A DNA stretch of 32,000 nt. It comes from Candidatus Harpocratesius repetitus. Lineage in GTDB: Archaea; Asgardarchaeota; Lokiarchaeia; Sigyniarchaeales; Promethearchaeaceae. The translations under genes and the position numbers were made by a program. The DNA is taken from assembly GCA_021498095.1 (NCBI GenBank), contig JAIZWK010000001.1, positions 3,300,001 through 3,332,000 on the forward strand, written 5' to 3'. The notes under the pieces were generated by a model. The model worked only from the letters and a program-made list of their open reading frames with translations, searched no databases and had not been told where the DNA came from. This document shows positions 4,730 to 20,244 of the stretch, piece by piece (positions within the stretch are counted from its first letter, which is position 1; each line of letters begins with the position of its first letter).

Positions 4730-4900
4730 TCTATGTAACTTTCTCATTTACTTTACATTTTTTTTCAATTTCTTTCATCCATCTATTTTTCCTTAATAAT
4801 TTCTATTTTGTTTATTTTAATTCGATTTATTTTTATCTAAATTCACTTTTCTATTATGAATAATCTTTTTCTTTTTGGTATTCTTTACATTTTTGAACTT

Positions 4901-6373: not shown

Positions 6374-6982
6374 CTAAGCGGACTCTTTAGTTAATTTTCT
6401 ACCTATTATCTCTAAAACTCCAAAAAATCCGAATCCAAATGTAAGCGCACTTAAAATCATAATAAATCCAGCAATAGTTTTAGTCGTTTCTGAAAAATGT
6501 TGAATAGATTCTCCCACTAAAATTAAAAATAAACCAATTCCCATTCCTAAACTTTTATAATCAGAGCGCCTTCGAAAGATCAATAAAAATAACCAGACAG
6601 TCATTAATGTAATAATCGTTGCTAAAATTGTGAATAAATGATATTGCGGAATAATGTAATGTACTACTGTTATTAGAATAACTCCAAGAGTAACAGTAAT
6701 ATTCACCCATTTTTTTAATTCTAAGACTTTACTTGAAAATAAAAATAGTATTAATATACTAATCACACTGACCAAAAATGCAATTTGAAAAACAATATTT
6801 TCAATTCCAAAAATTAAGGTGAAGAATAAAGTTATCCAACCAATACCAGCCGAAGTGAAGAAGACAATTAAATATAGACTGAGAATATTGTTATTATTCA
6901 TATATTTTAAGACTAGCTGCCCATCTATTATTATAAACATTAAGCCGATTATTAAAAAACCCGCCGCATATACTAAGTTCAT
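6374..6982 (-). CDS. Hypothetical polytopic membrane protein (about 7 TM, 202 aa)
   Basis: About seven hydrophobic segments with short loops; GGAG upstream of ATG. Confidence 0.8.
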   Translation of the reverse strand: MNLVYAAGFLIIGLMFIIIDGQLVLKYMNNNNILSLYLIVFFTSAGIGWITLFFTLIFGIENIVFQIAFLVSVISILILFLFSSKVLELKKWVNITVTLGVILITVVHYIIPQYHLFTILATIITLMTVWLFLLIFRRRSDYKSLGMGIGLFLILVGESIQHFSETTKTIAGFIMILSALTFGFGFFGVLEIIGRKLTKESA

Positions 6983-7112: not shown

Positions 7113-7532
7113 TTACCAAATTCCATCTACTACATGGGTTTTATCAGAAAAAAAATTATCTATATCCTTTGAAAATACTTCAAATTGTTGAATATTCCCT
7201 CCATTAAATCCTTTCAACATTTTCTTTCCAAATTTTTTTTCAAACATCTTATAAAGTGTCTTTAAGATGTTTCTAAGATGTTTCTCTTTTTGAATTGATT
7301 CAGTCAAACCAATTACAATTATTTTCGTTTCGAGATCTCTATAAAATATCAAAAATTTGTTTCCAAGATTCAGAGAAGTAATGCTCTGTTTTGAAGTAAA
7401 TTCAGTAAATTGATTAATCGCAGTAAGAAATCCTCCAAATAATTCCACAGATTCGGCTGTTGCATTATTAACTGTATGATATAAAACCAAGCCTGCTTCG
7501 TTTATTATCCAGATTTCATTGAATTCACGCAT
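7113..7532 (-). CDS. Stand-alone longin-like domain protein
   Basis: beta-beta (IWIINEAGLVLY), alpha (LFGGFLTAINQF), three strands, then alpha-alpha (LRNILKTLYKMFEKKF; FEVFSKDIDNFF): the longin topology common in Asgard proteins. Confidence 0.65.
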   Translation of the reverse strand: MREFNEIWIINEAGLVLYHTVNNATAESVELFGGFLTAINQFTEFTSKQSITSLNLGNKFLIFYRDLETKIIVIGLTESIQKEKHLRNILKTLYKMFEKKFGKKMLKGFNGGNIQQFEVFSKDIDNFFSDKTHVVDGIW

Positions 7533-7937
7533 TGAATACTATCCTCTCAAAAAATCACGTTTGTTTGTTGTTTTTCACTTGTTGTGTTTTATTAATAGAC
7601 TGAAAAATGTGCAAAAAAAAAGCACATATTAATTGATATTATTATATGCAAATATAAGATTATAAAACTTTTGACAATAATTCACAATAACCTTTCCGTT
7701 GGTTAACAATTACTATTCATGCATATAGAGAATTTCAGTTCTTTACATAAAAATTAAAAATTCTGCTGCAATGGCACAAATTATTTATTTTCTCTTATAT
7801 AATAATTCTTTTTATACGCAAAAGTCCATTTTTATTTTTTTCCCTTTTTGGTTCATCCATTTACCACACTCTCTCAGTCTATCATGTGTTTATTTCATAA
7901 ACTTTTTTTATGATTCTTCACTTACATAATTACAGCC

Positions 7938-8206: not shown

Positions 8207-9691
8207 TTAAAGGAATTTTATTTTCCTTTGATTTTTATTCTTTTTTGCAACAATCCAAATCATGATTATTAGAAAAGTGCTGAAATATCCTAAAGAATAA
8301 CCTTTTATTGAGAGATTGGTAATCAGGTTATCAAAACTTACATCACTACTATTTGTTTTAGGATAAACAGGTAAAATTTTTGAACATGTTGAATTATCTC
8401 CATTTTCATCAATAACTGTAAGTACTATAGTATAATTACCTGGTTCTTTATAAATATGCACGGGATCGCGTAATGTAGAACTATTGCCATCTCCAAAATC
8501 CCAAAAATACTTCATAGGAAGGTTTCCCATAGTTCCTGTGAAAGTAAAAGTAATTTCTTTATCAACTTCAAACGATGTTTGTGAAACACTGAAATCTGCC
8601 ATTGGAATCAAATCAAATTCGACATTTATTACTTGTAATGCACATCCTATATCATTTTCATTATCTCTAACTGAAAAATTTACAAGATATGAGCCTGGAG
8701 AAACATAAATGTGGCTACAGTTAAGTTCAGACGAAGTAGAGCCATCATCAAACTCCCATTTAAATTCAAGATAAGGTAATAATCCACCAGAGGGATATCC
8801 TGAAAATGAGATCTCTTCACCACAAAATACTTTATTCCGAGAAACTGTTATTTTAGTTTGAATCGGTTTTATAATTGTATTATTAACTAAAATCGTATTT
8901 ATTCCATTGTCAATTATAGCATCATCAATATTTTTTTTTAAATAATTATCAATTATTGAAGTTCGATATGAGGTTTTTTCAAATATAGGTCCATCTAAAT
9001 AAATTCCAACACGATTTTTTATAAAAGAATTATTTTTAACTAGAAAATCTGAACAATTTTCTATAAGCGTTCCATAATATAACGATTTTTTAAATATATT
9101 TGATGATATATTGTAATTTGATGAATATCTAATTAGCATACCCGATTTTCGAATATTTGATATCTGATTGTTCTGAATTTGAATATCTTCTGTATGAAAT
9201 GTCCGTATTCCATACGATTGAGACAAGCTAATATAACAATCTTGAATAATAATATTCGAAGAATATTGGAGATAAATACCATTTTTAAAAGAAGCGGAAT
9301 TAATCGTGCAATTTTTGATTATTCCATATACATTAGAATCATAAATACCTATACCCTGTTCTCCTGAACCATTTATTTCTATATTTGCAATAATATATGG
9401 ATCTTCCTTGGTACCTGAACCAGTAACAACATCACAAGTGGTCCAATCATTTCCATAAATACTAATGGATAAATGGGAAGATAGAACAGAGGGAGTTGAA
9501 AGTGCAGCTTCAGATTGAGAGGAATAAGGAGATTTTTTTAAATTTTTTTTCGTTTGAATTAAAGAAGTATCATGTAATGAACTTAAATTTACATTAGTCT
9601 GATAATTGGGTATTCCAATCCAAATAAAGGAAAATACTATACAATATAAAAGAGAAATACAAAAAGACCATTTGAATTTATTTGATTTCAT
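8207..9691 (-). CDS. Membrane-anchored surface protein: parallel beta-helix (NosD/CASH-like) plus two PKD domains
   Basis: N-terminal hydrophobic segment, GSGTKEDPYII motif, repeated GI.l..s.n..I.n strands, two PKD motifs (WEFDDG...HIY..PG.Y.V; WDFGDG...HIY..PGNYTI.LTV), C-terminal TM. ATG at 9691. Confidence 0.85.
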   Translation of the reverse strand: MKSNKFKWSFCISLLYCIVFSFIWIGIPNYQTNVNLSSLHDTSLIQTKKNLKKSPYSSQSEAALSTPSVLSSHLSISIYGNDWTTCDVVTGSGTKEDPYIIANIEINGSGEQGIGIYDSNVYGIIKNCTINSASFKNGIYLQYSSNIIIQDCYISLSQSYGIRTFHTEDIQIQNNQISNIRKSGMLIRYSSNYNISSNIFKKSLYYGTLIENCSDFLVKNNSFIKNRVGIYLDGPIFEKTSYRTSIIDNYLKKNIDDAIIDNGINTILVNNTIIKPIQTKITVSRNKVFCGEEISFSGYPSGGLLPYLEFKWEFDDGSTSSELNCSHIYVSPGSYLVNFSVRDNENDIGCALQVINVEFDLIPMADFSVSQTSFEVDKEITFTFTGTMGNLPMKYFWDFGDGNSSTLRDPVHIYKEPGNYTIVLTVIDENGDNSTCSKILPVYPKTNSSDVSFDNLITNLSIKGYSLGYFSTFLIIMIWIVAKKNKNQRKIKFL

Positions 9692-10127
9692 AATTAACAC
9701 GACTAAATACTTAAATGTTAGATAATTGTTAATTAAAATATTTTTTTAATTCAATCTTAACTAAAAATATTTTATAACCTGTATTTAAATTTTTATTTGA
9801 CTATTTGAATCTATTTCTAAGTAAAAAAAGTTGTAGGAATCTTGGTAGATTTCATACCACTAATAATATTATTCGTAGAACAAATTACATTAATACTCCT
9901 TTTCTTGATTTTAGGTTATTTCTCGTGGAATTTAGATTTTTCTTCTAATAATGGAGCGTTTGAACCAATTATAATAGAATTAGATCGTTTAGTCATTGTC
10001 TTTCGAGATATTACTCAAAGTAGAAAGTAAAATCAGCGAAGGAACTACATTTTCTATTGCACTTCCTTTACAAATTGCAAAGAATGAATAAAAATAGAAA
10101 AAGAAATATAAAATATTTTTAAAATTA

Positions 10128-12365: not shown

Positions 12366-14864
12366 TTAAAATTCAGTTTTATCCTTATTATCTTTTGTAT
12401 ATTCAAATTTAAGGATTTCACCAAAATATGAATAAATTCTATCAAGATCTTCTTGTAATCTAACAGTTTTTTGAATCGAAACGCAAATTTTTAAAAAATA
12501 AGATATTTCACATGAATTCAAGGCGCGAGAAAATTGGTAACGTTTTGTTTTTGATTTGATACCTTTTTTTTTATCAGAAGGAACGATTCTGTTCTTTAGA
12601 AAGAGAGATAATTGAGCTTTTCCGCCAATTTCGAATTCCCACATCTCTTTTGAAATTCCATCTATCCAAAAAGATGTATTAGGTGCCAATAGATCAAAAT
12701 ATATTCTATTTTCTTCTTCTTTCCATCCTGGATGTCGGACAATTGGTTTGGCTTTAAGATTGATTTTAAATGGACAAGATGATGGAAATATAAAAGAAGA
12801 CAGAGAAGATGAAGAAGGTAGAGAAGATGAAGATGATGAATAAAACGTGCTAGAATTCAAATTAAATTGGAGGGTATGTAATTTTAGTAATTTTTCCCCA
12901 ATTTCAGCCATTAAATGAAAAATTTTTGCATTTTTGGGAAATGGAATGCGTGGAAAATCTTGTTTCAACATAAATTGATATTTCAATCGATATTTTGGAG
13001 TCCAAAGTATAGCATAAATATAATAAAATATCTCTTCAGTTGATTTATAGTAATTAGATGGAAACAATGATAAAAATTCTGACGAAAAATTAATCTCATT
13101 AGCAGAAATTGGATGATTCCAATCTCCTTTTTTTATTGATTTTGATGAAATACGTAGAGGAAAAATATAATCGCCAATACCTGATCCTCCTTCAACACAA
13201 TGAGACTCAGCAATAATATTTGTCGCAAAAACGCTTGTATCTCCAGATGCTTTTCGAGATTTTCGAGAAACAATTATTGCAAGATTATTCTGCCAAGGAT
13301 ACATATATTGCATAAGTCGATAACTGCTTGAACCTTTTGTCATCAAATGTTCATCATAACAGACCCACCATCTATCAAAACCGCGCCATTGCCATTTCTG
13401 GATATTCTGTAAAGCTTTTTTAAGAGAACCTGCTTTTCCATCTGCAATTTTCCAATCTCGTGCATCATGATAAATAACACCATCAGCTTTAACCCAATTT
13501 TGATTTTTAGAATCTTTTATGATAATCTTGTCATAAGTTCCATCATAAAAAGAAGTGATTATTTTCTCCAACTCAAATCGATCGGGATGAGTAATTAATG
13601 TATCGTGCAAAGATTGAATACCTATGATATTTTTTGAGAAAATTTCTGTTATACAATAGAATTGATTGTACTCTTCTTCTCGCTTAATCAATTCAGAAGG
13701 AATAGCAACTAGGTTAAAATCACGACGGTAGGGAATTTTTACAAATGGAAGAGATTCGAAATTCTTATTACAGAAAACCTTTTTCCGTTTTATTGATCCA
13801 TAACATCCACAATAGAACACATTTGCTATATTTTCTTCCGAAATTTCCTGTTTTTCATTTAAAGTCTTACAATCTCTTTCATATTTTGAGAGATAAACAG
13901 CAATAAATAAGCAAATACCTGTCTGAATTCCGAATATATTTTCATCCTTTTCTTTATCACTAAATGATGGTTTATCAACAGCTTCGATTGAAGGTGGATT
14001 ACTCTTTTTGGGATCTCCGAATAAATTTATAATATAAATAAAATCAAATGATTTTAACAAACTACTTCGCAAACCTCGAAAAATATCACCATCTAAGAAA
14101 TAATTATTCAAGACTAAGGCAATAATTCCAGGTTGATTTCTGTCTGATATCAACCATTGGCAGTAACGAATGAATTTAACATAATCGTCTTGTATACCTT
14201 TTAGTCCTACTATCCTTTTTTTCCCTTTTCGCTGTAAATCTTTTTTATAATCTTCTACTAATCTGGAAATCCATAAACCTTTCGATTCAGAAGAAATGGC
14301 ATAAGGAGGATTCCCATAAATTATTAAAATATTATCTTTTTGGAGGGGCGGCAATTCATCGTTGATTTTAGATTTATCTAGGCCATTTAAAGGATTTCGT
14401 TGATATAAATGTTTCAATCTAATTTTTTTATCAATAAAAACGCATGATTTTTTCTCTATTTCCTTCATTGCAGAATTAAAACAAGTATTTGCATTAGAAA
14501 TGGTCTTAGAATCAATTTCAAATGAATAACTTTGATTTAAAAAAACTTGAGTAAACCATTTATTGAAATTTACTGGCTTAACCTGTTCTTGGCATAACTT
14601 AACTAATTCAATTGGAAAACTCAATTCTCCAGCAGCAGGATCCAAAAATTCAATCCGAGAAGAGAATAATCCTTCAACATTAAAGTTTTTAAAATGATGA
14701 ATAAGGCAATAATTTACCCCTCTAAGAAGGCATCTAATTAGAAATGGAGGCGTGTAATAGGCAGATGACCCCGAATAATTTCTTGAAAATCTTGCTGGAT
14801 GATTGTGGGGAGTGTTTTGATCTCTAATTAGAACCTTCTGATTTTTGATTTCCATATCTTTCAA
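12366..14864 (-). CDS. N6-adenine DNA methyltransferase with Type ISP/IIG-like C-terminal specificity domain, no N-terminal nuclease/helicase
   Basis: YYTP (motif X), FLDPAAG (motif I), GNPPY (motif IV), DDYVKFIR, NNYFLDG..FRGLR, DENIFGIQTG, IFYYIYAIL..PKYR....L..DFPRIPF. Confidence 0.85.
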   Translation of the reverse strand: MKDMEIKNQKVLIRDQNTPHNHPARFSRNYSGSSAYYTPPFLIRCLLRGVNYCLIHHFKNFNVEGLFSSRIEFLDPAAGELSFPIELVKLCQEQVKPVNFNKWFTQVFLNQSYSFEIDSKTISNANTCFNSAMKEIEKKSCVFIDKKIRLKHLYQRNPLNGLDKSKINDELPPLQKDNILIIYGNPPYAISSESKGLWISRLVEDYKKDLQRKGKKRIVGLKGIQDDYVKFIRYCQWLISDRNQPGIIALVLNNYFLDGDIFRGLRSSLLKSFDFIYIINLFGDPKKSNPPSIEAVDKPSFSDKEKDENIFGIQTGICLFIAVYLSKYERDCKTLNEKQEISEENIANVFYCGCYGSIKRKKVFCNKNFESLPFVKIPYRRDFNLVAIPSELIKREEEYNQFYCITEIFSKNIIGIQSLHDTLITHPDRFELEKIITSFYDGTYDKIIIKDSKNQNWVKADGVIYHDARDWKIADGKAGSLKKALQNIQKWQWRGFDRWWVCYDEHLMTKGSSSYRLMQYMYPWQNNLAIIVSRKSRKASGDTSVFATNIIAESHCVEGGSGIGDYIFPLRISSKSIKKGDWNHPISANEINFSSEFLSLFPSNYYKSTEEIFYYIYAILWTPKYRLKYQFMLKQDFPRIPFPKNAKIFHLMAEIGEKLLKLHTLQFNLNSSTFYSSSSSSLPSSSSLSSFIFPSSCPFKINLKAKPIVRHPGWKEEENRIYFDLLAPNTSFWIDGISKEMWEFEIGGKAQLSLFLKNRIVPSDKKKGIKSKTKRYQFSRALNSCEISYFLKICVSIQKTVRLQEDLDRIYSYFGEILKFEYTKDNKDKTEF

Positions 14865-15028: not shown

Positions 15029-15646
15029 ATGGCAACATCTGGAAGAACATATAGACATTCACCACAAAATGTGTTAAAAATCGCAATTCTCGGTGAAGGC
15101 GGTGTGGGAAAAACAACCTTAACAAAACGAATCATTACAGGTATTTTTGATGCTAAAACGCGCATGACAATTGGCGTTGATTTCCATTTACTTAAAACAT
15201 CAATATTTGATCCACTTGCACCTGAAGATGCGGATGACGTACCACAAATAGATATTCAAGCGCAGATTTGGGACTTCGCAGGAGAATCTCGATTTAGATT
15301 CATGTTACCACGCTATTGTAAAGGTGCTGTGGGCGGAGCATTATGCTATGATTTATCTCGTTATAGTACGACTAAATATATTGATGAATGGTATCAGATT
15401 TGGAAAGATAACGCTCCAGAAAACTCACCAATCATTTTAGTTGGAACAAAAGCAGATTTGATTGCAGAAAATGATATGGATGAAGCTCAACAAAATTTAG
15501 AAAAATTAGCACACCGCTTAAATATACCAGATTGGTACATAATTTCTGCGAAAAATGGTAGAAATGTACATATATTAACGAATGATTTACTAATTAAAGC
15601 ATATATATTCAATCAAAATTGGATTAAATCCCAGAAGAAGCAATGA
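15029..15646 (+). CDS. Rab-like small GTPase
   Basis: G1 GEGGVGKT, G2/RabF1 TIGVDF, G3 WDFAGE, RFRFM, YCKGA, G4 GTKAD, G5 ISAK; no C-terminal prenylation Cys. Confidence 0.92.
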   Translation: MATSGRTYRHSPQNVLKIAILGEGGVGKTTLTKRIITGIFDAKTRMTIGVDFHLLKTSIFDPLAPEDADDVPQIDIQAQIWDFAGESRFRFMLPRYCKGAVGGALCYDLSRYSTTKYIDEWYQIWKDNAPENSPIILVGTKADLIAENDMDEAQQNLEKLAHRLNIPDWYIISAKNGRNVHILTNDLLIKAYIFNQNWIKSQKKQ

Positions 15647-15705
15647 TTGAATGCTTTTAATGAAAACTCTTTTAGTGTTTTATTAATGTTTTTTTCATTG
15701 TTCTT

Positions 15706-16869
15706 TTAGAAATTTTTCCATTGTTCTTTGCAGAAATTCTTCATTTCCTCCGTAGCAACGAAACCAATACTTAATTTCTCCAGATCATCACGATATTTTC
15801 GTTCAAATTTATTTGCATTACGCTGTAAGAAAAAAAAGTGATTATTTGAATTTTCTTTTGTAAATAACACCCAAAGTATATTTTCTGTACGATAAATAGA
15901 TATTCTAACACTTTGAATTTCAAGATCTTTCAACTGACCAGAATCAAGACACTTTTTAGTAAAATTCTCAAAATTTGCTTTTGTGATATACATCAAATAT
16001 CGGATATTTGCAAAAATTTGGTTATTTTGTATATTTTGATTGGGTTCATTATTTGTAATTATTTCCTGTGAAGAAAAGTCATAATCAAACATTGGTAATC
16101 CATTTTTATATATTAAAATCAGGTATTGTAAATCACCTTGAAAAAGATACAAAAATTTCTTCTTTTTGGAATCAACCAACAGAAAGGTAATTCCAAAGAA
16201 AGCGAAATATAGGAGAACAAACAAGAGGTAAAGATTTACTTCAAAGAACGAAACAAAAACAAGAATAACTCTAATTAAAGAGGTAAGAAATAGAAAAATT
16301 ATAAAGAAGATTTGTCCATTCGGATAATCTTCATTTGTACCTTGACTTTTTTTTTGAACTTTAATAATAATTAATATCAATCGTCCTAAAATGTTAATTG
16401 AATTTAGCATAAAAAAAATTATTAGTATATTAAAAACTTGGGCATTTAATGAAAAGATGAAAAAGGTACCCCAAAATTTAGATTCCAGTGAATAATGGGG
16501 GGTTATAACCAACATAGCCGATATTGCCATCAATGAAATTATTATAGTGAATAATGTATGTATTCGATTACGAAAGATTATTATCTCATCGAGAAATAAA
16601 TTTAAAATAATAAATGAGAGAAAAAGAAAAATAAGCGTTAAAACCCCATATCGATTTAATAGAGAGAGGTATAAATCTTCAAGTTTAAAAGAAAAGGGAA
16701 TGTAAAAAAGAGTATCTATGTATAAACAAAGAAAATATGATAATAAAAATAGTACATATCGAAATCTCAAACGAATATAAGCCCTAATTAAAATTATTAT
16801 AACATAAATCATAATGAGGGTGTTAATTAGTCCGATAATGGATAGAAGAGTCATTTTTTTAATCAACAA
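15706..16869 (-). CDS. 7TM membrane protein with C-terminal longin-like domain
   Basis: Seven hydrophobic segments in aa 1-235, then YLILIYKNGLPMFDY, a helix, G.LK.LEI...RISIYRTENILWVLFT and F.R..NKFERKY (longin-like order). Start could be ATG 16854. Confidence 0.7.
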   Translation of the reverse strand: MLIKKMTLLSIIGLINTLIMIYVIIILIRAYIRLRFRYVLFLLSYFLCLYIDTLFYIPFSFKLEDLYLSLLNRYGVLTLIFLFLSFIILNLFLDEIIIFRNRIHTLFTIIISLMAISAMLVITPHYSLESKFWGTFFIFSLNAQVFNILIIFFMLNSINILGRLILIIIKVQKKSQGTNEDYPNGQIFFIIFLFLTSLIRVILVFVSFFEVNLYLLFVLLYFAFFGITFLLVDSKKKKFLYLFQGDLQYLILIYKNGLPMFDYDFSSQEIITNNEPNQNIQNNQIFANIRYLMYITKANFENFTKKCLDSGQLKDLEIQSVRISIYRTENILWVLFTKENSNNHFFFLQRNANKFERKYRDDLEKLSIGFVATEEMKNFCKEQWKNF

Positions 16870-16885
16870 TTTCGTTAAATTATTT

Positions 16886-18058
16886 TTAATAGTAAGGCTT
16901 CAAAAAAATTTTAAGTTCCTTTTTCACAATACCTTCTATGTTAATTTTCCCAACTGTATCAATTTTCTCAATTTTTTCTGATGTTTGCTTAATTCTCTCC
17001 TTTTCTTTTAAATATATATCAATACTCGACTCCATTTGCTCAATTATTGTGGAAAATGCTTGGTGATAAAGTTCTGATGTTTTTTTTGAAAACAAAACCC
17101 ATCTAAATCTACGAGATTGATAAAAAGAAACGACCAGCCTCTTAAATTGGAGATTCTTGAATGAGATTGGAGAATATGCTTTTTCAATTTTTCTGATGAA
17201 ATACAATTCAGTCCCCAAAAGTATTGAAGTAAAAGACAAAAGAGGGGTAATTTCTTGATCTTCTATATTTGAATCAAAAATTTGTCTTCTTAAAAAGTCA
17301 TATACCAAAGGAATTTTTATAGTATTTTGATTTTCAACAGGAAATATAATCAAATATCTTAACCCTCCTGGAAGAATTGTTAATTGATTACGATTATTAA
17401 TATATCCAACCATTATTATTGTATATACCAGCGACATGGCTAAATAATCAATTCCATAAAGATAATAGGGATAAATTCTTTTTACATTCGTTAAAATTAA
17501 CCAGAATAAGTAACCTAAACCCATTGTTATGAAAAAGCGTGGAATGTGCTTGAGCTTTAACTTACTAAATTTATATGATAGATAAAAGAAACGCAAATTC
17601 AAAGAAAATATCATTAAATAGATTAAAAGAAGAAAAAATTTAATTAGTGGAGTTTCAAAAATACCTGTATAAAATACTCCATAAGCTGAAATAACAGGTT
17701 TTATAGAAATACTTTCGGTAGTTAAATATACACCTAAAAAGACACCAGTTAATATTGAATAAATAAAACTGGGAAATCGCAACTGATTATGAACAATCTT
17801 GTCTAAATAATACGTAAGTAAACATGTATTGATTGGAATTAAAAAATTCGCCCAAAAAGTGTAATATTTTGCTGAAATTTCATTAATTGGAAAAAATAGA
17901 ACTCCTGGATATATCCAGCCACATACTGCAAAAAATAAACCTAAATAAATATCACTGCGAAATTTCATCTTGAAATATTCGATAAAGCTAAATATTGCCA
18001 AGATCCAAAAAATTAGACCTCCAAAAAAATAAATGAGATTTATTATTGATGGAATTAT
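16886..18058 (-). CDS. 7TM membrane protein with divergent C-terminal longin-like domain; probable non-AUG start
   Basis: The frame stays open upstream of track start 18001 to a TAG at 18068-18070, adding TM1 (IIPSIINLIYFFGGLIFWILAIF). The C-terminus (RYLIIFP...FKNLQF..LVVSFYQSRRFRWVLFS) parallels the neighbouring gene. Confidence 0.65.
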   Translation of the reverse strand: MIPSIINLIYFFGGLIFWILAIFSFIEYFKMKFRSDIYLGLFFAVCGWIYPGVLFFPINEISAKYYTFWANFLIPINTCLLTYYLDKIVHNQLRFPSFIYSILTGVFLGVYLTTESISIKPVISAYGVFYTGIFETPLIKFFLLLIYLMIFSLNLRFFYLSYKFSKLKLKHIPRFFITMGLGYLFWLILTNVKRIYPYYLYGIDYLAMSLVYTIIMVGYINNRNQLTILPGGLRYLIIFPVENQNTIKIPLVYDFLRRQIFDSNIEDQEITPLLSFTSILLGTELYFIRKIEKAYSPISFKNLQFKRLVVSFYQSRRFRWVLFSKKTSELYHQAFSTIIEQMESSIDIYLKEKERIKQTSEKIEKIDTVGKINIEGIVKKELKIFLKPYY

Positions 18059-18064
18059 CTTAAT

Positions 18065-18069
18065 CTCCT
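18065..18069 (-). promoter_or_regulatory. Shine-Dalgarno-like AGGAG 6 nt before ATA(18058)
   Basis: Minus strand reads TAGGAG-ATTAAG-ATA-ATT-CCA. Confidence 0.55.
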
Positions 18070-18217: not shown

Positions 18218-19534
18218 TCAATTTTCCATAGCTGCACGAGGTGCAACATTAGGCCAAAAAATTTGCTTGGAAGCCTCAAAAGCGGTTGGTTTCATCACAA
18301 GATCAGGTCGTCCGCATTTATACGCAGTCAAAGCCTTTAACAATTGTAAAGAATAAATAAACGCACGATTTTTTATCGATGAGGACATCCCTCGCGTATT
18401 TAATCGTTTTCCATTATAATATGTGTTATTACTCGAATTTCCTTGTTCAATCATCGGACGAAACTTATAAATCTTAAGAAAATATTCATTAGACCATGAA
18501 TTTGGGATATAATCAGTATTGAAATAATAACCTTTTGTTAATTCCTTAACTGGTTGATTTTTAATATTTTTCCGATCTCTAATAATAAGCATCACCCCTC
18601 GATAGTGTAAATGTTTTAGAATTGACTCAGAATAAGGTCCTGAATCTGCAATTATAAGACTCCATTGATGATGATTAATTCTAAAAAAATCTTCAATTGA
18701 TTCTTTAAACGCTTGGTTATCGCTTCGATTACCTGGAAACATCTTGAAATATATCGGAAAACACCGATCTTTACAATATGCATACAATATTCCAGGATCA
18801 TAACCTACTCCCTTCTTGATTCCATTATGCCGACAATAACCCGCATCAGGATCTCCATATGTGTCTAATCCATCCTTTTTATTATTATTGCTATTTGCAC
18901 GGATGAATTGGCCATCCCAAAGTAAGATTCGAGGTATAATTAATCCATAATCAATACATTCTTCTACTAAATCTTGAAAAAATTGAAATACATCAGATTC
19001 AGGTAATTTCTTAATCACATAACTCATATCTGCAGCATTAGGAACACTGTGTGAGTGTACGGGAAGGCTGAAAATAGACAATTGCGGAGCAAACCGAAAC
19101 AATTTCTCAATGCCCCGATAATCTTTAAATCCCATATTAATTCGTAACATTTCATAAATTATAATATCTCTGACAAATAATCCTTTAAAAGAAACACCTT
19201 CTGATTCTAATCGATCTTGTACCTCATCAAAAAACGATAAATCGTTGAATTCAAAGAGATTTTCAAAAGAACCTTGAAAGTGGGGAAGGTAATGAAACAT
19301 ATCCCATTCGAGTTTAGTGATATGATTTTTCGCAAAATCTTGATAGCACGTTGTTTTTATAGAAGGAAACCGATAGAGATATTTTCCATTCAAATCGGGT
19401 ATCCATTTTATAAAATCGGTCATCTTTTTTTGCGATTTAGGAATAATTGATGCAGATCTTGCTTTTTCATAATTGCGAACATAAATCCAAGAAAACCGTT
19501 TCCGCGCAACTCTATAGTCTTTAGGTCTCGACAT
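18218..19534 (-). mobile_element. DDE transposase (IS4/IS5-like DDE_Tnp_1 clan); element ends not identified
   Basis: LLWDGQFIRAN (D), LIIADSGPYS (D), YKFRPMIEQGNS (Y-x2-R-x3-E; E). ORF track start 19624, likelier ATG 19534. Confidence 0.8.
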
Positions 19535-20244
19535 ATTATAAATTTCAACATGAATTAATCCAATATAATCTGTTATCTGCGTTTGAAGGATAGGAGGTCG
19601 GTTTTTGTAGTAGATCTTAATCAAAGTTAACCACGAATAATATTACTCTTAAATAATAATATAGAGTCCACAGTATTAAAAATTTTTATTCAATTTACGA
19701 TTTCATCAACAAAACAAGTACAATCCTATATAATAATTCGAAGTTGAAAGGCTATCTTCATGAAATTCGGCTAAAAACAGATTATCCTAAAGGAGATTGG
19801 GAAGTGCTGGAAAATGAATTTGGACAAGAAAAATGTAGAAATTGCAATCTAAGATTGAAATCAAAGCCAATTTTTCACAAAAGAAAGAAAAAATTTACAA
19901 ATTTTCAAGATGAAATTTACTCAAATACTATATTAACTTTTTTTCTGAAAAATTATTTTTAAAACAAATAATTGAATTGTTCAAATCTATTTATTTCTTT
20001 TAGTTATGGGAATAGTGAAGGAAAGTCTCTTCTATATTACATATTGATTTCACTATTCAAAAAAAAATGAATCAATCTCCTATCATTTGAATCGAGATTT
20101 TTAAATAAAATTCTCTTTATTAAAATAAGCAAAAGTATTTGTAAGAATGAATTCATTATCCGATATTATTTTTTCAAAAAAGCACAATAAAACTTACCTT
20201 CATGAGCATGAGAGAAATAGGATAAAAATTAGGGATTGTTAATA

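Follow-up and report, generated by a model that had tools for sequence, protein, structure and literature searches.

Longin and roadblock dimers are the usual platforms of small GTPases, and fusions of longin or roadblock domains with GTPases in Asgard archaea imply a functional tie between the two (PMC10933270). According to the same published analysis, Asgard GTPases are without known regulators or lipid anchors, the GTPase genes of MK-D1 generally lie outside operons with roadblock, longin or TRAPPC3 genes, and gene order does not reveal the partners of Asgard GTPases; the word 'transmembrane' is absent from that paper. The closest printed analogues of the locus described here are those soluble Asgard fusions and the actinobacterial conservon (CvnA–D, Mfp), in which a sensor resembling a histidine kinase (CvnA), a separate roadblock protein (CvnB), the required CvnC and the GTPase CvnD are encoded in one operon. 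Our subject is a pair of tandem genes of the lokiarchaeon Candidatus Harpocratesius repetitus, each encoding a seven-transmembrane (7TM) domain followed by a domain predicted to have the longin fold, which converge on the gene of a Rab-like small GTPase. They lie in a 32,000-nucleotide stretch, referred to here as the window (positions 3,300,001–3,332,000 of the single 4.36-Mb contig JAIZWK010000001.1; G+C content about 29%), whose close homologues, where they carry names, are of Promethearchaeota or Lokiarchaeota origin. The 7TM–longin fusion is real, widespread and apparently undescribed, no description having been found in a literature search of limited reach; the tie of the pair to the neighbouring GTPase is weak.

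Gene models and predicted folds of the two membrane proteins

Facing the GTPase gene (15029–15646, plus strand; window coordinates throughout unless a locus is named) are two tandem minus-strand genes, the arrangement from which the original prediction started, and the stop-to-stop gap is exactly the 59 bp claimed for it (a T-rich spacer, 15647–15705). Next to the spacer is paralogue B (15706–16869), of 387 residues when read from TTG 16869, with an ATG five codons further on. Its 7TM part occupies about 16159–16869 and its longin domain about 15709–16158; about seven hydrophobic segments are present and the whole length aligns to the family. Paralogue A (16886–18055) has its 7TM part at about 17381–18055 and its longin domain at about 16889–17380, and comprises 389 residues if it begins at ATT 18055–18053.

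The start of paralogue A is unusual. As listed from its first TTG the gene covers 16886–18001, with the frame open upstream to 18067, and the stretch upstream of this TTG contains no ATG, GTG or TTG and encodes the first transmembrane helix (TM1), which is conserved in the family. In-frame conservation of TM1-coding sequence upstream of the first ATG or TTG is found in four of four loci, as is an ATT with GGAG 9–10 nucleotides upstream; in the window the signal (18053–18069) consists of AGGAG at 18069–18065, a 9-nucleotide spacer and the ATT, and in the orthologous loci it lies at 7899–7916 (L001), 7901–7916 (L002) and 4846–4864 (L021). Because TM1 is kept in frame without a canonical start, and because ATT and GGAG are shared by these four loci, ATT 18055 is the probable start, as judged from sequence comparison. 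The end first proposed, 18058, was thus essentially right, lying three bases off. More distant family members have an ordinary ATG before the same helix. Public gene calls are too short for both A and B, the latter being deposited as 234 residues; a Rab-like open reading frame of locus L070 (7409–7951, stop to stop) likewise has no canonical start, and automated calls shorten such genes.

The full-length model of paralogue A (AlphaFold2 with a 19-row family alignment; pLDDT 84, pTM 0.76) comprises seven transmembrane helices, a β-hairpin between TM4 and TM5, and a C-terminal α/β domain of ββαββαα order, which we read as longin-type. The equivalent domain of paralogue B (residues 238–387, about 150 residues; pLDDT 82) is predicted to contain a five-stranded sheet in ββαβββαα order with no N-terminal helix, as expected of a longin (DSSP: E10–17, E22–27, (E32–34), H43–70, E79–81, E84–90, E94–100, H107–131, H137–148). 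Aligned to 48,161 PDB representatives, this model finds only members of the longin/roadblock superfamily among its 50 top matches. The highest structural similarity is observed for Ccz1 in the crystal structure of Mon1–Ccz1–Ypt7 (PDB 5ldd chain E; Z-score of 12.0 and root-mean-square deviation (r.m.s.d.) of 3.2 Å over 134 residues), followed by TRAPP small subunits (3cue chain C, Z-score 11.8; another, 11.4), synbindin (10.4), BLOC-3 (10.3), the VAMP7 longin (2vx8; 10.0), CPLANE (9.9) and AP sigma and mu (about 9.8), with roadblock proteins lower (8.2–7.4). Foldseek is concordant, returning TRAPP, AP sigma and Ragulator, and the proposal of a C-terminal longin fold akin to Mon1–Ccz1, TRAPP and BLOC-3 is therefore borne out at the level of predicted structure.

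At the sequence level the domain stands apart. The Pfam longin models (Longin, Sybindin, Sedlin_N, Fuz_longin_1 and Intu_longin_1) do not match A or B at E ≤0.1, the C-domain profile finds nothing significant among PDB sequences, and profile–profile alignment (hhalign) of the C-domains with the window's own stand-alone, Fuz_longin_1-positive longin (7113–7532) gives a probability below 3%, that is, no similarity. Both C-terminal domains are thus assigned as longins from their models, at fold level. Each protein carries one such domain behind its membrane bundle, not the three consecutive ones of a tri-longin protein.

Preceding the longin domain is the 7TM bundle. In paralogue A, the loops after TM1, TM3, TM5 and TM7 hold 12 lysine and arginine residues and the other loops 2, and therefore the N-terminus and the TM4–TM5 hairpin should lie outside and the longin domain in the cytoplasm, in agreement with the topology originally suggested for both genes. 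Over all seven helices the model of A resembles the transmembrane domains of class C G protein-coupled receptors (GPCRs), with GABA-B (9jqx chain A, Z-score 15.3) and GPR156 (14.9), aligned over 211–217 residues with an r.m.s.d. of about 3.5 Å, at the head of a range of 15.3–14.0; designed GPCR-like folds, microbial rhodopsins (Z-scores 12–13.6) and many class A receptors follow, and Foldseek places class A peptide receptors first (E 2e-3). The GPCR-like character of the membrane part is one of fold, at Z-scores (up to about 15) that, as the alignment tool warns, helical bundles reach without homology. Among full-length models of the ESM Atlas the nearest to A are three clusters of Promethearchaeota hypothetical proteins (TM-score 0.63–0.74), and these are followed by HisKA_7TM sensor modules from bacteria, which carry kinase or GGDEF/EAL domains as fused outputs (TM-score 0.68, normalised to the matched Atlas model). 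Neither A nor B matches Pfam 7tm_1, 7tm_3, HisKA_7TM (PF16927) or any other 7TM receptor family. The safest reading, based on the predicted structures, is that the 7TM part would be a prokaryotic sensor-type bundle with the helix arrangement of GPCRs and rhodopsins.

Distribution and duplication of the 7TM–longin family

That the two genes are paralogues, as first supposed, is supported by their C-terminal domains, which are homologous (27% identity, E 4e-6), and by a maximum-likelihood tree, in which the A/B duplication is specific to the window clade, pairs elsewhere arise by separate duplications, and B sits on a long branch. A profile of the C-domain retrieves 20 representatives from 1.84 billion proteins, a small branch containing A and B, and in all 20 the domain forms the C-terminal part of a protein about 375 residues long. 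The window genome holds only these two copies. Over both domains, the small branch is homologous to a much larger 7TM–longin superfamily (hhalign probability 98%, E 8e-14, 331 columns), one member of which alone accounts for no fewer than 371 clusters (90% identity), every one of them 'hypothetical' and without a Pfam domain. Within the class, 108 of 161 genomes, belonging to 24 of 30 genera, contain superfamily matches, a single genome holding as many as 12 copies; tandem pairs or triplets occur in 10 of the first 20 loci.

Further, more distant superfamily candidates in the window genome (G000:C1, 2816734–2817810, 3059812–3060570, 4079134–4080300 and 4292591–4293886) number four, none of them within 35 kb of a Ras-like gene. 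A 429-residue gene after P0022 in locus L058, considered for membership, is not a member, and a split-versus-fused ('Rosetta stone') relationship was also rejected, the small transmembrane protein at 6374–6982 being unrelated to the 7TM domain of the family.

Conserved neighbours are seen in other parts of the superfamily. Directly upstream of the 438/440-residue subfamily, and co-oriented with it in 15 of 15 loci, is a double winged helix-turn-helix (wHTH) gene of 236–270 residues. This cassette spans three family-level groups, and where it occurs in tandem each copy has its own wHTH gene (L018, 7677–9781; L019, 6143–8201; and 13 further loci, among L065–L068, L071–L073, L076, L077, L081 and L082). 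Two members of the small branch that are diverged and occur singly (L022, 7240–8307, and L028, 2202–3986, both minus strand) are each convergent with a secreted-type protein with β-helix, NosD and PKD features; their other neighbours differ, and a similar β-helix/PKD gene is present in the window at 8207–9700.

The neighbouring GTPase and other possible partners

The GTPase on which the pair converges has 205 residues and matches Pfam Ras (97 bits) and Roc (85 bits). Its Ras-superfamily motifs G1–G5 can be read and Rabs are its nearest relatives, as required of a Rab-family member: in a comparison with PDB sequences, the 60 best matches are without exception Rab, Ypt or Sec4 proteins, with Rab11, Rab27B, Sec4 and Ypt nearest. 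The P-loop (GEGGVGKT) is normal, G4 reads TKAD and G5 SAK. In switch II (DFAGES) a Glu occupies the position of the catalytic Gln of Ras and Rab, and all orthologues have DFAGES or DFAGEE there; because switch II is without this Gln, the GTPase may need a partner for its cycle. Common to the orthologues are about six extra residues between switch I and switch II, which the window's other two GTPases do not have. The C-terminus (...IKSQKKQ) contains no Cys and hence no prenylation motif, and the description of the protein as Rab-like and of unprenylated type stands. Orthologues share 63–83% identity across a family-level clade and paralogues at most 48%.

Taken together, the folds and the gene arrangement allow a tentative proposal, to which we give clearly less than an even chance: A and B would form a heterodimeric receptor whose longin platform regulates the neighbouring GTPase. 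Both would be receptor-like membrane proteins, each with a sensor-type bundle of seven helices and one cytoplasmic longin domain. Within the heterodimer, A would retain the membrane domain for sensing and B the longin domain for output. Conservation among orthologues is reciprocal in this respect, being higher for the membrane domain in A (7TM 64–73% identity, longin 34–49%) and for the longin domain in B (7TM 18–34%, longin 42–65%), a pattern expected of a sensor subunit and an output subunit, though no proof that the two associate. The paired longins could then form a dimeric platform of the kind by which longin and roadblock proteins dock small GTPases, and a change in the 7TM bundle might govern whether a soluble, unprenylated GTPase is recruited to the membrane, or its nucleotide state there; whether regulation would take the form of exchange, activation or anchoring is conjectural, as is a ligand. 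The foremost candidate for the client, although unproven, is the Rab-like GTPase on which the pair converges.

Several observations count in favour of this proposal. The solved longins most like those of the pair are GTPase-platform longins (Ccz1, TRAPP, synbindin, BLOC-3 and CPLANE), and the 7TM fold matches, the distribution of lysine and arginine and the reciprocal constraint on A and B agree with a receptor-like pair. Tandem pairs recur by independent duplications, and pair and GTPase are neighbours in five of five loci of the window clade. The geometry is repeated in genus g20, which belongs to another family-level group: in 10 genomes a tandem pair of a different subfamily is convergent on a 186-residue Rab-like GTPase across a gap of 3–30 bp, and the four-gene block is kept at 67–91% identity between variable outer flanks. 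The g20 GTPase is not orthologous to that of the window, its best match in the window genome being another gene (50% identity). A single ancestral pair-plus-GTPase locus was considered and rejected, as the duplications are separate and the GTPases belong to different orthologous groups.

The genomic context also supplies the main evidence against a dedicated GTPase partner. Synteny in the window clade extends over the entire region (ThiF, glutamate dehydrogenase, Type ISP-like methylase), and two of the five loci hold further genes that separate the pair from the GTPase. The length of the spacer is not kept either: 59 bp in the window and 32 bp in L002, it grows to 2.8 kb with two genes in L001 and to 0.85 kb with two small open reading frames in L021. 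Orthologues of the GTPase are spread through the family-level clade, and the GTPase is 77–83% conserved where B is only about 30% conserved. One closed relative of 4.32 Mb carries the GTPase orthologue in the same block between ThiF and the Type ISP-like gene without the pair, and a full-length family profile finds no small-branch member anywhere in that genome; the 145-residue gene in the place of the pair, examined as a possible longin, is a zinc-ribbon protein with three transmembrane helices. A 6.03-Mb genome has one branch member only, at a distance of 343 kb from the GTPase orthologue; the convergent neighbour of this member, 6 bp away, is a stand-alone longin gene matching Pfam Fuz_longin_1. 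Linkage in relatives, which was to have been a test of the original prediction, therefore holds for the adjacency in the window clade and for the repeated geometry in g20, but not for relatives whose orthologous GTPase is without the family or far from it.

Over the superfamily, 60 loci (about 35–40 independent positions) were scanned for neighbours. An adjacent GTPase is found in two orthologous groups only, with no third case, and the largest subfamily (438/440 residues) is invariably linked to the winged-helix gene and not to a GTPase. Because Ras-family genes make up 1–2% of genes (49 matches in the window genome, 49–70 per genome), chance predicts about 0.2–0.8 GTPase-adjacent cases, so that two are barely above chance and only suggestive. 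A complex prediction for longin A, longin B and the GTPase scored 0.14 (mark, 0.32) and counts neither for nor against.

These observations give equal likelihood to another explanation, in which the longin docks a partner other than a GTPase, for example a winged-helix regulator or a soluble longin, and the pair was inserted into an older conserved block running from ThiF to the GTPase and the Type ISP-like gene, its position beside the GTPase being fortuitous. The invariable wHTH gene of the 438/440-residue subfamily and the Fuz_longin_1 gene 6 bp from the branch member of the 6.03-Mb genome each offer such a partner, every relative retains the association of GTPase and Type ISP-like gene, whether or not it has the pair, and adjacency to a GTPase is rare over the superfamily. 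On the other hand, the window pair has no adjoining wHTH gene, a second and independent pair-plus-GTPase arrangement exists in g20, and the closest solved folds are GTPase-binding longins.

Less probable, and in our view unlikely, is that the seven-helix domain is a transporter, an enzyme or a plain anchor, with the longin serving regulation or oligomerisation, as it does in longin SNAREs and AP sigma. The similarity to GPCRs and rhodopsins is confined to the fold, in a Z-score range that may be generic for helical bundles, neither domain has a Pfam match, and longin domains also serve outside GTPase control (PMC10933270). Yet the nearest Atlas models from outside the Asgard archaea combine a sensor module with a signalling output, there is no match to a transporter or enzyme family, and the membrane domain of A has conserved polar and aromatic motifs as well as its extracellular β-hairpin. 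Very improbable is that B is a decaying duplicate beside a homodimeric A, the pair having no joint role: its long branch, diverged 7TM domain, lost family motifs and shortened gene call would fit, but each of the four loci that have the complete pair encodes an intact, full-length B, and B appears to be under selection rather than decaying because its longin domain is better kept than that of A.

Other genes surround the locus. Divergently paired with the GTPase is a gene for an 832-residue Type ISP-like methylase/specificity protein (12366–14864, minus strand; Pfam Type_ISP_C), a neighbourhood kept in all relatives examined irrespective of the 7TM–longin pair, with one gene inserted between the two in the 6.03-Mb genome. 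The stand-alone longin next to the branch member of that genome is L017 8401–8823 (minus strand), the same as L025 7126–7533; the arrangement recurs on two metagenome contigs, and the window's own longin is weakly like it (30% over 61 residues). Between paralogue A and a divergent fused permease, about 160 bp upstream of the start of A, is a DDE transposase gene (18218–19624, minus strand; Pfam DDE_Tnp_1). The orthologous locus L002 does not have this gene, the window genome has a single copy of it, and clear terminal repeats could not be defined for it. In two relatives the GTPase orthologue has a GNAT protein directly downstream (L052, 5907–7067; L053, 6200–7297; both minus strand), whose likeness to the N-terminal domain of N-myristoyltransferase is weak (29 bits in one, where the cut-off is 25, and a score under the cut-off in the other); the N-terminus of the window GTPase reads MATSG, not MG. 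The divergent neighbour of the g20 GTPase gene encodes a conserved protein of 637–657 residues (L070, 5238–7154, minus strand; orthologues in L085–L095), a candidate for winged-helix repeats followed by TPR-like repeats as judged by eye only.

Implications and comparison with known systems

Asgard archaea have dozens of Ras-superfamily GTPases without established native regulators or membrane anchors, for which the family described here is a concrete candidate, and the window and g20 loci nominate specific GTPase clients. A broader possibility, to which we assign a low probability, is that Lokiarchaeia possess native signalling from receptors to small GTPases, with GPCR-shaped 7TM dimers whose fused longins would either anchor Rab-like GTPases to the membrane or promote exchange on them in response to a signal. 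If true, this would explain how unprenylated Asgard GTPases reach membranes, and would provide both a prokaryotic forerunner of membrane-bound longin Rab exchange factors and an analogue of the coupling between GPCRs and G proteins. Even if the link to GTPases fails, the family constitutes a large class of membrane signalling proteins in Asgard archaea that is so far unannotated, one subfamily of which has a strictly conserved winged-helix partner gene.

In overall architecture the proteins resemble bacterial sensors with a HisKA_7TM module, sharing an N-terminal seven-helix bundle followed by a cytoplasmic domain of signalling type; the output here is a longin instead of a kinase or cyclase, and the likeness is that of the Atlas models (TM-score 0.68), not of the Pfam family. 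With the class C GPCRs GABA-B and GPR156 the bundle of A shares seven helices of the same connectivity (Z-scores 15.3–14.8, in the range common for helical bundles) and the orientation with the N-terminus outside and the C-terminus inside, but A and B have neither sequence similarity to that class nor a class motif, and no heterotrimeric G protein is apparent, although no search aimed at one was made. Class C GPCRs such as GABA-B and GPR156 are obligate dimers. A division of labour between two paralogues would, by analogy, echo GABA-B. Asgard 'class C GPCR' and '7TM' structural clusters, the former of which may or may not correspond to the 7TM–longin family, are reported in a 2026 preprint that makes no mention of longin (10.64898/2026.10.28.762692).

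The conservon combines the same kinds of component, a sensor, a roadblock or longin fold and a GTPase, but in a different layout. Sensor and longin are here fused, and the GTPase gene is convergent and not co-transcribed; no kinase domain or CvnC-like gene is encoded among the neighbours of the pair, which is thus not a conservon operon. Closer in organism are the solved Asgard longin and roadblock dimers (PDB 8yqg, 9jue and 7yh1), which come from the same organisms and belong to the same fold superfamily (Z-score 8.3 for the C-domain of B with a Lokiarchaeota longin, 8yqg chain B, and 8.2 with 9jue chain D). Unlike the proteins of the pair, these Asgard longin and roadblock proteins are soluble or fused to the GTPase itself.

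Closest in fold are the longins of the eukaryotic Rab exchange platforms. Mon1–Ccz1, BLOC-3 and CPLANE differ in carrying three longin domains per subunit where A and B carry one each, and the longins of eukaryotic Rab exchange factors are soluble or peripheral, whereas here the longin follows a 7TM bundle and has no sequence-level match. Exchange by a heterodimer that binds nucleotide-free Rab is a feature of the eukaryotic tri-longin factors and, by analogy, a putative one of A and B. With these complexes and the TRAPP core of Bet5 and Trs23 (TRAPPC1 and TRAPPC4), the pair nevertheless has in common the predicted fold (Z-scores of 10–12 over 117–134 residues), two diverged paralogues side by side and a Rab-like GTPase, which here is encoded next to them.

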